This document shows, in pieces, positions 1-11,326 of a DNA stretch of 64,000 nucleotides. A program made the position numbers and the translations under genes. Location: the sequence record MK562502. One strand, given 5' to 3'. The stretch's first letter is position 1; each line of letters starts with the position of its first letter. The stretch comes from Shigella phage KPS64. The notes beneath the pieces were generated by a model. It worked only from the letters and a program-made list of their open reading frames with translations. It was not told the DNA's origin and searched no databases.

Positions 1-2373
1 TTATTCCCAACAGTTGGTATCTTCTGGGATGCTCTTAGTGTCAAAACCTAAAAACTTACCAACTTCGACGGGTGATACTTTATTCCAATCCAGATTAGAA
101 AGCAAGAAGTTTTCTTTACGGCGTTTCTCAAAGTAATCTTTGAACTTACTTTCAAGACGCTTCTTAGCGTTATCCAGAACCTTTCTTGGCTTACAAGAGC
201 CTCTCATATTCCTGCGAATGGTATCAAGAGTGCTGGTAATATCTTTGTAAGCAACTGGTGCAGCAGTGTATGCCAAGCGTCCAAACATTGCTTCTATAGC
301 CTCTTCATTCCCCTCTAAGAAAATAGTCTTCTTAAAGTCTTTACTGTAAATGTGGCCTCTGGACTTACGCTTATCAGCAAACATAAAGTTTCGAGAAATC
401 ACATTACAATCAGTAATATCATGATTATTAGTCATATATTGGTGAGTCAAGAAACGATGATACTCAATCCAATGTGTAGCATCAATGAAATCTTTCATCA
501 CTTGTTCATTGACTTCTGTCCAGTCTTCAGGAATCTTTTTCCAGTTGGCTTTACGGAAGACATAAACTGACTGTCCAGTTAACTCTGTTATCAACGTTGC
601 AGCACGTTCTGGTGAACATGAGAAGATTCCACCAATCACTTCATCACTCTGTGCTTTGATATACAGTTGTGGTTCTTCAATCTCATCAAAGTTCTCTTTA
701 ACCTCTGTATAACGAATCATGTAAGTATTTGGACATATAAATGCTTTATACAGTTTTACAACACCACGTACAATAGTACGTTTTTCATAGTGGTGCTCTT
801 TAGATGACATTGTATGCACACTTAACAGACTCTTGTCAAGCATATGCAAAGCTACAAACTCATCAAATTGCTGCTGACTGCTGAACAAGAAAGCAATACC
901 ATTGTAGCGACGGAAGTTAGAGTCTTCCTGTTCACGGTCACGGCAAGCTCCACGGATAATCTGGTTTTTACCAGTTGTCTTCTCAGACCCGTTCTTGTTT
1001 CGACGGTCATTAATAAGGAACAAATAGTTGCTCAACTTATCTTTACTCATTGCACCAAAGATACTAAACATTGCTGCATCTTGTGAATAAGTTGCTGAAG
1101 TTGCTCGAATACGGTTCTCCAGACTGCTGTACTTGTAGTATGCTACAGGTTCATACAGATTACCAATATTAGGAACTGGATTACCATCTTTGTCAAGCCT
1201 CAAGTTACCTGCATCATCTTTCAAGAATGACGGAGAACCATCTGCTTCAGTTAACTGACCACGACGGATACCTAACAGTTTTTGTTCAAGCTTTTTCAAG
1301 TTCTGGCCTTGCCATTCCAGAGAATCTTGGACGTGAATAAAGATTTCACGAGCCTCCTTCCTCATGGTATCATAGGCTTGAGCAGCATCAATCAGAGTTG
1401 GCTTGTTAGCAATCTCTTTTACCACATCTTCTACGATTGTCTTAGTGATTTTCTTCACAGCTTCAACAATCTTGGTCTTAGTGGTCTCATTCATCTGCAA
1501 TGCTTCACGAGATGCAGCAATAGCCACTGAACCAATTGGCATGTAGATGTTAACAAGGTCTACAGCACTACGGAAGAACTGAGGCAGAATGCTTGTAAAC
1601 TCTGAACCAAGCAACTCACCCATTTCAACAGGATAAGCAATATTACCCATGATTACATTGAAATGGACACTGTTACTATTTGAACGCCAGCTCTCTTTGT
1701 ACTTCATTGCATCATAGACACCCTCTTCACGAGAAATGGAAGTCATTGCTTCAAGAATGTCATAGTACTCAACATTACACTCTGGCTTAACTTTAAAGTA
1801 CGAGTATACATTGCTCGCTTCTTCATGAAACTTGTTGATACGGTTATCGGATACCGCTACTCGAACAGCTAAACCATTTGGCTCTGTAGTTGGGTTAGTA
1901 GTCAACTTAGTTACTTGAGGGATACCATTCTCAAGGTAAACTGAGTATTTGTTAACTACACCATCAACATAGCTTGATACAGTGAATGACTGAGCAATTG
2001 CAAATGGGGACTTTGAACCGATACCCATAGCACCAATGTAGTCGTTTGAATCGTTCTTTGTAGATTCTCCATAGGTCATGTAAAGTTTCATAACTTTATC
2101 ATGAGTCAGTCCTGTACCAAAGTCACGAACTTCAAAGAATGGCTCAAAACGAGTTGGTAAGTGAACCAAGAAAGGTTTATCAACGTTACCAGAATCAATG
2201 TGAGCATCTACTGCGTTGCATGACAATTCACGAATTACAGCACGTTCTTTATATGTGTAAACACCTGAGCTTAGAAGACTGAACATTTCAGGTGTCATCT
2301 TAATCTGAGCCTGAGAGGTTTCCAGTGTACTTGAGCTTTTAATTACCGTTGCGTGGTCATTTACCATGCGCAT
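1..2373 (-). CDS. rIIA-like protein with N-terminal GHKL-type ATPase motifs
   Basis: 790-aa ORF, stop TAA at 1-3. N-terminal segment (RELSCNAVDAH ... DFGTGL ... GAMGIGSKS) resembles histidine-kinase/Hsp90-type ATP-binding motifs as in T4 rIIA. Motif recognition only. Confidence 0.45.
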   Translation of the reverse strand: MRMVNDHATVIKSSSTLETSQAQIKMTPEMFSLLSSGVYTYKERAVIRELSCNAVDAHIDSGNVDKPFLVHLPTRFEPFFEVRDFGTGLTHDKVMKLYMTYGESTKNDSNDYIGAMGIGSKSPFAIAQSFTVSSYVDGVVNKYSVYLENGIPQVTKLTTNPTTEPNGLAVRVAVSDNRINKFHEEASNVYSYFKVKPECNVEYYDILEAMTSISREEGVYDAMKYKESWRSNSNSVHFNVIMGNIAYPVEMGELLGSEFTSILPQFFRSAVDLVNIYMPIGSVAIAASREALQMNETTKTKIVEAVKKITKTIVEDVVKEIANKPTLIDAAQAYDTMRKEAREIFIHVQDSLEWQGQNLKKLEQKLLGIRRGQLTEADGSPSFLKDDAGNLRLDKDGNPVPNIGNLYEPVAYYKYSSLENRIRATSATYSQDAAMFSIFGAMSKDKLSNYLFLINDRRNKNGSEKTTGKNQIIRGACRDREQEDSNFRRYNGIAFLFSSQQQFDEFVALHMLDKSLLSVHTMSSKEHHYEKRTIVRGVVKLYKAFICPNTYMIRYTEVKENFDEIEEPQLYIKAQSDEVIGGIFSCSPERAATLITELTGQSVYVFRKANWKKIPEDWTEVNEQVMKDFIDATHWIEYHRFLTHQYMTNNHDITDCNVISRNFMFADKRKSRGHIYSKDFKKTIFLEGNEEAIEAMFGRLAYTAAPVAYKDITSTLDTIRRNMRGSCKPRKVLDNAKKRLESKFKDYFEKRRKENFLLSNLDWNKVSPVEVGKFLGFDTKSIPEDTNCWE

Positions 2374-2435
2374 AAGAATATCTCCTTAGTTGTCGATGTG
2401 GCAAACTATATAATTTTATAGATGCCACTGTCAAG

Positions 2436-2615
2436 TTACTTTTTAAATTTCTTTCCAGTTCCATTACAGTAAGGGCAACAATGACCTATACCAACTACCC
2501 CAGAACCTTCACACTCATCACAAGGTTCGGTCTCTGAGAAGTACTTGCATAGTAACACTGCAAAAGCAACTATACAACCGAGTGAAAGAACAATTTCTAA
2601 CCAATAACCTTGCAT
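2436..2615 (-). CDS. 59-aa membrane-anchored protein with DnaJ-type zinc finger (two CxxCxGxG repeats)
   Basis: Hand translation MQGYWLEIVLSLGCIVAFAVLLCKYFSETEPCDECEGSGVVGIGHCCPYCNGTGKKFKK. GGAG about 6 nt upstream of ATG. Below the 60-aa cut-off of the ORF track. Confidence 0.4.
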   Translation of the reverse strand: MQGYWLEIVLSLGCIVAFAVLLCKYFSETEPCDECEGSGVVGIGHCCPYCNGTGKKFKK

Positions 2616-2944
2616 ACCTTATCTCCTATAGTTCTGAATAGGACAAAACTCCTGTCATGGACAATACTCGAAGATACTGCAAAACTATTCTCAAGTATCT
2701 TTTTGTTTGGATTGTAAAATTCTTCTTGAAACAAATCAAGAGCTTCTTGATGGTTCTGTGGAAGACCTTTGATATAAACCTTCAAAGTAACCGTTGTATA
2801 AATCTCAGAAGCTAACTCTGATTGTGCTGCTTGAAACAGTTCATTGATAAACTTATGACCATCTTCATGGCGCTTGATGTTTTCCCAACGCTCTTCAATG
2901 ATTAAATTAACATTCATCTGTTTAATTTTCATATTAATCTCCAC
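2597..2944 (-). CDS. hypothetical protein
   Basis: 115-aa ORF; GGAG-type RBS before the internal MKIKQ start; no recognisable motif. Confidence 0.4.
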   Translation of the reverse strand: MEINMKIKQMNVNLIIEERWENIKRHEDGHKFINELFQAAQSELASEIYTTVTLKVYIKGLPQNHQEALDLFQEEFYNPNKKILENSFAVSSSIVHDRSFVLFRTIGDKVCKVIG

Positions 2945-2948
2945 AAAT

Positions 2949-2970
2949 TAAAAAGGCTCCCGTAGGAGCC
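2949..2970 (-). terminator. rho-independent terminator (minus strand)
   Basis: Hairpin GGCTCC-CGTA-GGAGCC followed by a T-run on the minus strand, downstream of the NAMPT-like gene. Confidence 0.5.
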
Positions 2971-2985
2971 TCTTATCATACTGTT

Positions 2986-4803
2986 TTAAAGTTGCTTGTC
3001 AATAGTATTTCGAACATCACGCAGGTTAACGTAACCATAAGGTTGCGAGTTACTAAATACCAGTTTCAAAGCACTATGACAGTTGTCAATTGCACCTTCA
3101 AACTCTGCAAAGCCAAAACCATCTACAGCTACCAGCTTGTCACCATCCCACATAGGGACGACTCCACCAAAAGCAGACTTCTTAAGACCACTGTCAGTTT
3201 TAGGGTCTTTAGCCAGCATAATTTCTTGACCATCCATCTGTGCAAGAGTTGCTTTAACAGCAAATGCAAAGGTGTCACGAGTCAGGTACTGATAGGTGTA
3301 TGAGCCTACACCAAACACTACGTTAGAACTTGCAAAACCTTTATCAGCAAGACGTGACAGAATCTCATTAGCCCTTTCCAGAGTGATAGAATCACCGTAG
3401 ATTAGTCCAATGTGCTCATCCAGTACTTTGTACCCTTTGGAGTTAATAGTGCCACCAAAGATGTTATACAGCGTGTGGATAGCTCCGTCAATTTCTGCTG
3501 TCAGCATACGCTTCACAGTAAACTGTCCAGTTTTCTGAGCGGTAATCAGGTTGATTGTATCAGCAGATTCAAAATCTTCTTTATCAACAACCATCTCATA
3601 ACCTTCAGAGATTAGCCAAGCAGAGAACCCAAAGCCAATATCAGACATTTCACAATTCAAGATTGTGTCATGCAGATGTGTATTGTTCGGTGCAAGCTCT
3701 TTCATGTGCTTATAGAACATTGACTTAGCAGTTTCCCATTCAATGGCTTTGTAACCTGTAACAATGTGAACAGGGTCTCCAGAGTCTGGACGAATTACCA
3801 ACTTACCATCACGATTCAGAATTACATTACGTAGCTCTGGCAGAATCTGTGTAACAGTACGCCAGAAGTTGTAAGTATCTGATACGGCACTTGCAATACC
3901 AGTTGGGTAAACTTCTGTCAGAAGGCGATGGAAAGTTTCTACCTCACCACGCCAACGCATTGCATCAAGTAAGTTGTCAGAATGCGATAGATGCCAATCA
4001 CTTACCTCTTTGTTAAGACTGTTCCATGAGATGTTTGCACACATCACAGAGTGCTCAGTAGCTGGGACAGAGTTACCAATCTCACCTACATTCATAAACT
4101 GACCATATGCACGTTTAGCTGTATATACAGCAGGGAAGCTGTCAGTACCTTTAAAACTTGTCAGGTGACCTACTGCGTTAAACGCATCATCTGTGAAGCC
4201 AGACATACCACGCATTGCAAAGTCATGACACTGCCAAGGTAAATGGAAGTCGTTGTCACAGGTCTTGTCAGCCCATTGCTTACAAATACGTTTGTAGTGC
4301 AGTGCAATTGTTGCAATCGTACAAGCTTTCCAGATTTCAGCAGAGAAAGCATCTTCAAGGTAACCAGCTACCCAATGGAATCCCTCTACAGTGTTTTTGA
4401 ATACAATCATCGGGACACGCATAGGGACAATTGTACCTTCCTCTACAGAGTAGACTTCAACAGGTAGGTAGCCCAAGTCATGAAGTTCTTCCCAATGTTG
4501 ACGACCAATAGCATCTGCACCGAGAACACCATTCATGATTTCCAAGATTTCGTCAATGGCTTCTTTCTTATCACGTTCAAAGAACGTTGCATTCCAGTGG
4601 TCTACCAGATAGTCTTTTACAAAACGCTGAATACCAAAGGCTACAACACCATCAATCTCTAACGGAGAGTTAAACCATTTGTCTCCACGAGGTGTTAAGT
4701 TCAGCATAAGATACTGTGTAGCATCTGGATACTGGTAGAAATGGCCAGATTTGTAGGCATCTGCATTAAGTGCTGCTGGTACTGCATAAAGTGATTTAGT
4801 CAT
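2986..4803 (-). CDS. nadV: nicotinamide phosphoribosyltransferase family protein (NAMPT/NadV-like; possible Namat)
   Basis: 605-aa ORF with NAMPT-like N-terminus and length; AG-rich RBS region upstream. Confidence 0.8.
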   Translation of the reverse strand: MTKSLYAVPAALNADAYKSGHFYQYPDATQYLMLNLTPRGDKWFNSPLEIDGVVAFGIQRFVKDYLVDHWNATFFERDKKEAIDEILEIMNGVLGADAIGRQHWEELHDLGYLPVEVYSVEEGTIVPMRVPMIVFKNTVEGFHWVAGYLEDAFSAEIWKACTIATIALHYKRICKQWADKTCDNDFHLPWQCHDFAMRGMSGFTDDAFNAVGHLTSFKGTDSFPAVYTAKRAYGQFMNVGEIGNSVPATEHSVMCANISWNSLNKEVSDWHLSHSDNLLDAMRWRGEVETFHRLLTEVYPTGIASAVSDTYNFWRTVTQILPELRNVILNRDGKLVIRPDSGDPVHIVTGYKAIEWETAKSMFYKHMKELAPNNTHLHDTILNCEMSDIGFGFSAWLISEGYEMVVDKEDFESADTINLITAQKTGQFTVKRMLTAEIDGAIHTLYNIFGGTINSKGYKVLDEHIGLIYGDSITLERANEILSRLADKGFASSNVVFGVGSYTYQYLTRDTFAFAVKATLAQMDGQEIMLAKDPKTDSGLKKSAFGGVVPMWDGDKLVAVDGFGFAEFEGAIDNCHSALKLVFSNSQPYGYVNLRDVRNTIDKQL

Positions 4804-11125: not shown

Positions 11126-11326
11126 CTACTTAGAAAACTTTTCAATAAGCTTTTTAAGCTTTCCACTCAAATCATGTTTGATATCTAATATCTCAAAGAT
11201 AACCCATACTAGCATAGCTCCAAATAGAGCACCTTGTTTTAAATCAGTAAACAGGCTAGTAACCATGAATGCCAGAGCAATCATCGGAGCATCTTCAACA
11301 AAACCATCCCATAAACGTTTAAGCAT
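11126..11326 (-). CDS. hypothetical small membrane protein
   Basis: 66-aa ORF with a hydrophobic segment. Confidence 0.35.
   Translation of the reverse strand: MLKRLWDGFVEDAPMIALAFMVTSLFTDLKQGALFGAMLVWVIFEILDIKHDLSGKLKKLIEKFSK

Follow-up and report, generated by a model that had tools for sequence, protein, structure and literature searches.

We analyzed a 64,000-nucleotide (nt) stretch of DNA from Shigella phage KPS64 (sequence record MK562502), hereafter the window, and describe here a small gene near its start that encodes a 59-amino-acid (aa) protein with a predicted membrane-spanning helix followed by two CxxCxGxG motifs. The gene runs from ATG to TAA on the minus strand (2615 to 2436), and the first-pass annotation of this DNA, made from the letters alone, was right both to call it real and to place it below the threshold of the open reading frame (ORF) track, whose 60-aa cut-off it misses by one residue. 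Read from the sequence, its translation is MQGYWLEIVLSLGCIVAFAVLLCKYFSETEPCDECEGSGVVGIGHCCPYCNGTGKKFKK, with YFSETEPCDECEGSGVVGIGHCCPYCNGTGK as a tryptic peptide; the plus strand over the same interval contains many stops. Its GGAG site is well spaced from the start codon, and in Citrobacter phage Mijalis the site carries a ribosome-binding site annotation at identical coordinates. The start of the gene overlaps the 3' end of an upstream 111-aa ORF by the 19 nt reported earlier (the upstream ORF ends at 2597), and this overlap, which is kept in the phages FelixO1, pEC-M719, ESh22, mistaenkt, and SUSP1, implies translational coupling of the two genes. The coordinates of these and the neighboring features are collected in table 1.

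Table 1. Features in and around the 59-aa gene, in coordinates of the window
Feature	Coordinates	Strand	Basis or remark
59-aa protein-coding gene	2436..2615	minus	ATG 2615-2613; stop TAA 2438-2436 (included)
Shine-Dalgarno GGAG, 7 nt 5' of the ATG	2626-2623	minus	read from sequence
19-nt overlap of the 3' end of the upstream 111-aa ORF with the start of the 59-aa gene	2597..2615	minus	
Hydrophobic transmembrane anchor, residues 5-23	2547..2603	minus	
First CxxCxGxG motif, C32-D-E-C35-E-G37-S-G39 (CDECEGSG)	2499..2522	minus	
Second CxxCxGxG motif, C47-P-Y-C50-N-G52-T-G54 (CPYCNGTG)	2454..2477	minus	with the first motif, predicted single Cys4 zinc site
Basic C-terminal tail KKFKK	2439..2453	minus	K55 nearly invariant
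rIIA, invariant downstream neighbor in Ounavirinae	1..2373	minus	annotation of relatives
Upstream 111-aa ORF, PHROG 4262 ("unknown function")	2597..2932	minus	profile match, E = 8e-65
Sigma-70-like promoter before rIIA, TTGACA-18-TATAGT, 11/12 matches	2434-2405	minus	promoter scan
Hairpin enclosing the -10 of that promoter, within 2393-2434	arms 2428-2423 (GTGGCA) and 2403-2398 (TGCCAC)	minus	
Promoter after nadV, upstream of the 111-aa ORF, TTGACA-16-TATGAT, 11/12 matches	3002-2975	minus	promoter scan
Terminator-like 10-bp hairpin with T-run, abutting that promoter	2974-2951	minus	

The description of the gene as unannotated did not hold. Shigella phage Sf13, a Mooglevirus of the Ounavirinae (Felix-O1-like myoviruses), shares 99.9% identity with the region, and essentially all related GenBank records annotate the gene: as a "predicted membrane protein" in Sf13 (gp71), a "putative cytoplasmic membrane protein" in Mijalis, and a "hypothetical membrane protein" in FelixO1 (ORF131). 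The SUSP1 orthologue, agp080 (L010, 1637-1816), is listed under PHROG 3931 and equals Felix01p243. The window protein matches PHROG 3931 ("unknown function") over its full length (residues 1-59 to profile positions 1-59, E = 2.2e-33), and its orthologues in Sf13, Mijalis, FelixO1, and SUSP1 are syntenic, which makes it a member of this family. The public annotation lacks a zinc-finger assignment because the single sequence, which carries only half of the domain, scores 17.8 bits (E = 0.0039) with the Pfam model PF00684 (DnaJ_CXXCXGXG), below the cut-off of 32.7. Used alone in a word-indexed search of proteins, the peptide gave only two matches; the family became visible with an alignment query and an exhaustive profile search.

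Full-length copies of the gene are present in 251 of the 255 Ounavirinae-type tblastn matches, and another 62 matches fall in Krischvirus (RB49-like relatives of T4), in which a related protein of 52-55 aa has the same architecture and a GCCxxCxGxGK signature. The frame is kept in about 315 phage genomes of these two groups, so that the possibility of a frame not conserved in relatives, which the first-pass annotation had raised against itself, clearly fails. Exhaustive profile searching adds a handful of short metagenomic relatives that also combine a helix with a knuckle. Among Mooglevirus relatives the ratio of nonsynonymous to synonymous differences (pN/pS) is 0.12-0.21, with pS of 0.34-0.48 and pN of 0.05-0.09. 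The copies in Felixounavirus and Suspvirus, at 50-55% identity to the window protein, keep the start, the helix, and both motifs, and members that share only 31-36% identity with it still keep the cysteine and glycine positions. Exactly eight positions, all within the motifs, do not vary across 15 diverse members (C32, C35, G37, G39, C47, C50, G52, and G54); M1 and E7 hardly vary, and the helix cysteines C14 and C23 are not conserved. The 59-aa ORF is a genuine gene under purifying selection.

That the ORF arose by chance, or is a decaying nonfunctional remnant, might be argued from its 59 codons, from frameshifts in a few isolates, and from the place of Felix O1 ORF131 outside the set assayed by reverse-transcription PCR. 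The low pN/pS at a pS of about 0.4, the cysteines and glycines held at such low identity, the conserved ribosome-binding site, a motif pair that never occurs in shuffled DNA, and guide RNAs at the start region that reduce the fitness of SUSP1 (the last two described below) effectively refute this explanation, and we give it a negligible probability. The frameshifted entries, with breaks at differing positions, are phiWec172/177, NJ12, and three metagenomic copies; in phiWec172 (L007, 1501-1692) the break is a 1-nt deletion in otherwise conserved DNA. These alleles are either recent or recurrent natural losses or sequencing errors, and they suggest that the gene is not strictly essential. Five of the frameshifted proteins (P0011, P0013, P0014, P0015, and P0016) enter one common alternative frame, which ends ...VKCLISNLTVN.

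Both CxxCxGxG repeats named by the first-pass annotation are present, and a search of the six frames of the window finds these two motifs and no others. In 100 shuffles of the window, single motifs turned up 0.2 times on average and a pair never did, which places the pair beyond chance. The DnaJ-type signature that had been proposed for them is borne out by profile comparison: the family profile matches the solved cysteine-rich domain of Escherichia coli DnaJ (1EXK) with E = 3.7e-10, its first motif being aligned with motifs of that domain, and human DNAJA3 (2CTT) with E = 1.4e-6; the similarity to Anti-TRAP is weak (E = 0.03-0.05). Two perfect motifs with family-wide invariant cysteines and glycines conform to the CxxCxGxG consensus of PF00684, although the match spans model positions 36-65 of 65 and two motifs stand in place of the four motifs and two zinc centers of that domain. 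An AlphaFold model (predicted local distance difference test [pLDDT] score of 74) has a helix over residues 3-27, followed by a beta-hairpin knuckle, and its top fold matches in the PDB are all of one kind, namely the DnaJ cysteine-rich domain (1EXK first), Anti-TRAP, and BSD2 (6EKB). The best matches among predicted viral structures are the orthologues of Sf18, RB49, and Erwinia phage phiEa21-4. Throughout the family the linker between the motifs is 6-8 residues long and the cysteine spacing is C-x2-C-x10/11-C-x2-C, as in the single Cys4 site of Anti-TRAP, whose two neighboring motifs are separated by about 10 residues; in the alignment, profile positions 30-53 correspond to residues 10-33 of Anti-TRAP. 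The four invariant cysteines, their spacing, and the model together point to zinc binding through these cysteines.

We consider the 59-aa protein to be, as far as sequence and model can tell, a DnaJ-type single zinc knuckle on a membrane anchor that belongs to neither the DnaJ nor the Anti-TRAP family, and we are highly confident that a real protein with a transmembrane segment and a zinc knuckle is encoded here. It is not a DnaJ because it has half of the cysteine-rich domain, a score below the cut-off, and no J domain: searches of Pfam and NCBIfam returned no J-domain (HPD) match, and 59 aa hold neither a G/F region nor the C-terminal substrate-binding domains. It is not an Anti-TRAP because its scores are below the family cut-offs (11.8 against 32 bits for Pfam PF15777 and 16.9 against 65 for NCBIfam NF058604), because the five residues after its second motif leave no C-terminal oligomerization helix, and because its hosts lack the target: to our knowledge enterobacteria have no TRAP, so the target of the phage protein must differ from that of Anti-TRAP.

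The first-pass annotation had also called such a protein unusual in a phage, and this stands in part. Predicted phage structures include many small DnaJ-like or Anti-TRAP-like zinc-knuckle proteins that lack a J domain; after the orthologues, the next viral-structure matches are many small uncharacterized phage proteins labeled as DnaJ-like or Anti-TRAP-domain. The membrane-anchored form, on the other hand, was found only in Ounavirinae, Krischvirus, and the few metagenomic relatives. Scans of IMG/VR with four of these relatives (P0062, P0113, P0056, and P0161) returned only unrelated large proteins that end in CxxCxGxG pairs. One such ORF is portal-like and 507 aa long (L014, 2576-4099), and a 339-aa ORF (L013, 3062-4081) ends in a single motif. 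These occurrences suggest that the knuckle is an often reused add-on module in phage proteins. In bacteria, a sizeable set of proteins (P0049, P0059, P0067, P0073, P0099, P0109, and P0126) lacks a J domain and carries 4-12 tandem CxxCxGxG motifs behind a signal peptide or lipobox. Judging from these N-termini they are presumably exported; we know of no characterized function for exported multi-knuckle proteins of this type.

The single transmembrane helix seen by the first-pass annotation coincides with residues 5-23, the most hydrophobic 19-residue window of the protein (mean Kyte-Doolittle value of 2.44), and lies within the helix of the AlphaFold model. None of 17 family members has a lysine or arginine before the helix, where an acidic residue is nearly invariant, and the basic residues of the family are exclusively on its C-terminal side, which is clearly net positive in the Felix O1 and Krischvirus copies. 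The exported-looking bacterial repeat proteins, by contrast, begin with MKK- or MKR-type N-termini. The Pf3 coat protein, which has an acidic N-terminal tail without lysine or arginine and a basic C-terminal tail, inserts with its N-terminus out and its C-terminus in. On the charge pattern, the positive-inside rule, and this analogy, the N-terminus of the phage protein is predicted to be periplasmic and the knuckle cytoplasmic. We regard a cytoplasmic knuckle as likely; zinc sites are stable in that compartment.

The opposite topology would place the cysteine-rich segment in the periplasm, as a disulfide-stabilized knot or a thiol-disulfide oxidoreductase with a target in the envelope or periplasm. 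Thiol-disulfide oxidoreductase activity has been reported for some plant DnaJ-like zinc-finger proteins, many of the bacterial CxxCxGxG-repeat proteins with a signal peptide or lipobox are likely exported, an acidic segment follows the helix in the Mooglevirus copies, and the Krischvirus gene is translationally coupled to a redoxin gene, nrdH. NrdH is a cytoplasmic protein (textbook knowledge), however, so that its neighborhood if anything favors the cytoplasm. No family member has the positive N-terminus typical of signal peptides and anchors, the basic residues all being C-terminal to the helix, and the invariant CxGxG glycines with their Anti-TRAP-like spacing fit a zinc knuckle. We therefore think a periplasmic cysteine-rich segment unlikely.

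Information on expression and importance comes from two relatives. In Felix O1, expression of ORF 130 and ORF 1 (rIIA), which flank ORF131, reaches its maximum at 25 min, and the reverse-transcription PCR set excluded ORF131 itself (PMC3185647). In SUSP1, the only Ounavirinae phage for which there is a genome-wide screen, knock-down with dCas13d (CRISPRi-ART) gave agp080 a fold change (FC) of 1.05 with P = 0.11, which narrowly fails thresholds of FC > 1.2 and P < 0.05 and is scored "Not Fit" (PMC11879866). Three of the seven start-region guides of agp080 nevertheless score 1.8-2.2 (PMC11879866 supplement), as does the last guide of the overlapping upstream gene; the upstream genes themselves score -0.6 to 0.1, and rIIA 1.83 ("Semi-fit") (PMC11879866). 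These guide scores suggest either a real effect below the threshold or an effect on the neighboring Semi-fit rIIA, and they are indirect evidence that the translation start of agp080 is in use. Taken together, the SUSP1 scores and the frameshift alleles point to an accessory gene whose effect in a laboratory host is mild at most.

These data bear on two other roles for a small phage membrane protein. A superinfection-exclusion or injection-blocking factor like Imm of T4 would be an inner-membrane protein of small size, made early and dispensable, that changes a membrane component on which the entry of phage DNA depends. Small size, a membrane anchor, and low importance in laboratory infections fit such a factor; the gene lies in an early or middle block, and the flanking Felix O1 ORFs peak at 25 min (PMC3185647); and it is shared by two unrelated lineages of enterobacterial phages, as is often the case for exchangeable accessory genes. 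Knock-down of an exclusion factor in a single-phage infection should not cut fitness, yet three of the seven guides do so. The protein shows no similarity to known exclusion proteins, PHROG 3931 being its sole family match, and it would expose almost nothing to the periplasm. An exclusion role thus seems to us improbable.

The second role is that of a holin, antiholin, or lysis-timing factor. The Felix O1 genome paper lists gp131 among five holin candidates (PMC3185647), and experiments have yet to identify a holin in any of the Ounavirinae (PMC11879866 supplementary discussion). With one helix, small size, and a charged C-terminus (KKFKK) the protein answers the general description of a holin, and its gene adjoins rIIA, historically a lysis-inhibition locus. 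A "Not Fit" score would speak against a lysis trigger, with the caveat that zero lysis genes scored Fit in the SUSP1 screen (PMC11879866). Sf13, Moogle, and Michonne have another gene annotated as the putative holin (gp120 in Sf13, beside the tail fibers), and Krischvirus PQ306574 carries both a T4-type holin and a member of the zinc-knuckle family; we considered a holin and largely rejected it. Frameshift alleles occur in plaque-forming isolates, and the gene lies in a nucleotide-metabolism block away from the late and lysis genes. We also know of no holin that carries a zinc-finger domain. A part in lysis is very unlikely.

In all Ounavirinae examined, the gene order is nadV, one or two small ORFs, the 59-aa gene, and rIIA. 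In Yersinia phage P778 the orthologue stands directly between nadV and rIIA, with no 111-aa ORF, and the position before rIIA is thus more constant than the coupling with that ORF. In Krischvirus the family gene always directly follows nrdH, with an 11-nt overlap. This inconsistency of neighborhood means that gene context indicates no partner. The 111-aa ORF itself, although conserved in Ounavirinae, has no Pfam or NCBIfam match, and its AlphaFold model (pLDDT of 62) has no meaningful fold match in the PDB; it is a neighbor only, and nothing marks it as a partner. Its start is ATG 2932 (111 aa) in public records and in the PHROG profile, and GTG 2944 (115 aa) in the automatic ORF list. We also asked whether it is a degenerate form of NrdH or of glutaredoxin, in which case the contexts in Ounavirinae and Krischvirus would have been equivalent, and rejected this (hhalign probability of 0.2%). 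A 66-aa predicted membrane ORF on the minus strand (11126-11326), which overlaps the end of a glutaredoxin gene, was considered as a paralogue and rejected as well, since it has no cysteines and is unrelated. The layout of that pair is similar to that of nrdH and the zinc-finger ORF in Krischvirus.

Putative transcription signals lie directly after the stop codon of the gene, in front of rIIA, and beyond the 111-aa ORF, next to nadV (table 1). The hairpin on the rIIA side has a folding free energy (dG) of -13.9 kcal/mol (z = -4.2), and equally stable hairpins of other sequence occupy the same place in ESh22 (GAGGTA/TACCTC), pEC-M719 (GGCTAT/ATAGCC), and mistaenkt (TGCAGAG/CTCTGCA). At the corresponding junction Felix O1 has a short spacer and no hairpin. 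RNAalifold gave no consensus for these intergenic hairpins, whose arms are out of register in the alignment and which appear when the sequences are folded separately. The rIIA-side hairpin lacks a following T-run and is therefore no classical terminator; it could serve in RNA processing or stability or could control the expression of rIIA. On the nadV side, the hairpin with its T-run and the promoter that it abuts (2951-3002) look like a boundary between transcription units at which a terminator and a promoter are combined. A search of Rfam over 2300-3100 found nothing near any gathering score, with weak sub-threshold matches to small RNAs on the 2974-2951 hairpin.

How might a protein of this kind act? 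The zinc centers of DnaJ bind substrate and DnaK and form a zinc-stabilized protein-binding surface, and Anti-TRAP acts purely by binding TRAP. According to the titles of its PDB entries, BSD2 binds RbcL. As the characterized knuckles of DnaJ type are protein-binding surfaces, partner binding is the most likely mechanism. We propose that the 59-aa protein is a small accessory single-span phage protein whose short acidic N-terminus would face the periplasm, whose helix (about residues 5-23) would span the inner membrane in the manner of the Pf3 coat protein, and whose 35 C-terminal residues would lie on the cytoplasmic face. There the four invariant cysteines of the adjacent motifs would fold around one zinc into a beta-hairpin knuckle, equivalent to half of a DnaJ cysteine-rich domain and similar in geometry to Anti-TRAP or BSD2, with the basic tail after it. 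The knuckle would bind a partner protein at the cytoplasmic face of the inner membrane and hold or modulate it, with a benefit to infection that may be slight or limited to some hosts. Candidate partners are a host inner-membrane or membrane-proximal protein, such as FtsH (by analogy with the plant protein FIP, described below), or the membrane-associated rII proteins of the phage (by position).

From sequence, model, and analogy we lean toward this explanation as a whole, a membrane-tethered protein-binding module; the accessory role through partner binding, which draws on analogy, we hold to be about evenly balanced, and any particular named partner to be quite improbable at best. The protein could also be a FIP-like modulator of a host membrane machine (e.g., FtsH) or an unrecognized third component that acts with the membrane-associated RIIA and RIIB against abortive infection, which we regard as unlikely. 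Our search of the literature for phage membrane zinc fingers or for links to FtsH found nothing directly relevant. Several observations weigh against the explanation. The genomic context of the family differs by lineage (before rIIA or after nrdH), the likeness to FIP draws on a published description of its architecture, and the E-values of the fold search are not significant by themselves for so tiny a domain. In the Mooglevirus copies, that of the window included, the C-terminal side of the helix is neutral (five K/R against five D/E), and the acidic linker makes their positive-inside signal weaker than that of the FelixO1 and Krischvirus copies. Nor is CxxCxGxG confined to the cytoplasm, given that related bacterial repeat proteins appear, from their sequences, to be exported.

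New here are the placement of this phage family among the J-domain-less DnaJ-type zinc fingers and its distribution over two phage lineages; the gene as a hypothetical membrane protein, the domain type, and the architecture (from the plant analogue) were already known. In practical terms, the gain is a domain assignment that standard pipelines miss, half of a DnaJ cysteine-rich domain falling below the Pfam cut-off. The gene is one among many small conserved accessory genes of phages, carried by some 315 phages of a kind widely used for typing and biocontrol of Salmonella, E. coli, and Shigella. It adjoins rIIA, and finding its partner could uncover a process of the host that is manipulated by these phages. 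If the reading as a FIP-like modulator or RII component were true, the Felix-O1-like and RB49-like phages would have a new class of small host-takeover or counter-defense factor.

Among known systems, the cysteine-rich domain of DnaJ (PF00684, 1EXK) has an identical CxxCxGxG motif, significant profile similarity, and the top fold match. DnaJ differs in its four motifs and two zinc sites, compared with two motifs, one predicted site, and an added membrane helix in the phage protein. Anti-TRAP (RtpA of Bacillus; 2BX9, 3LCZ) is closer in size, at about 53 aa, and has a single Cys4 site made of two adjacent DnaJ-like motifs. The phage model superposes on 2BX9, in which one zinc is held by the four cysteines of one chain, with a root-mean-square deviation of 0.9 A over 29 residues. 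Anti-TRAP is soluble, however, and oligomerizes through the C-terminal helix that the phage protein lacks. BSD2 and the J-domain-less zinc-finger proteins of plants use DnaJ-type knuckles as protein-binding or assembly factors, as we propose for the phage protein, although BSD2 is soluble, larger, and without a membrane anchor, has two zinc sites, and serves Rubisco assembly. The Pf3 coat protein matches the phage protein in charge pattern and is an analogue of topology only, being a structural component of the virion that has neither a zinc finger nor any relationship in sequence. FIP of Arabidopsis (At5g02160) has the same architecture: a membrane anchor and a C4 finger with two CXXCXGXG motifs that faces the stroma, and no J domain. 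Yeast two-hybrid and pull-down assays showed that it binds FtsH5, a membrane protease (PMC5915565). It is made with a transit peptide, resides in plant thylakoids, and comes from a family reported in land plants only, and an interaction of the phage protein with FtsH would be a matter of pure analogy; its mature architecture and orientation are nonetheless those predicted for the phage protein, the stroma being equivalent to the cytoplasm. If our interpretation is right, the 59-aa protein is a bacterial-virus example of the group formed by Anti-TRAP, BSD2, and FIP, whose action consists purely in binding other proteins, here anchored to the inner membrane.

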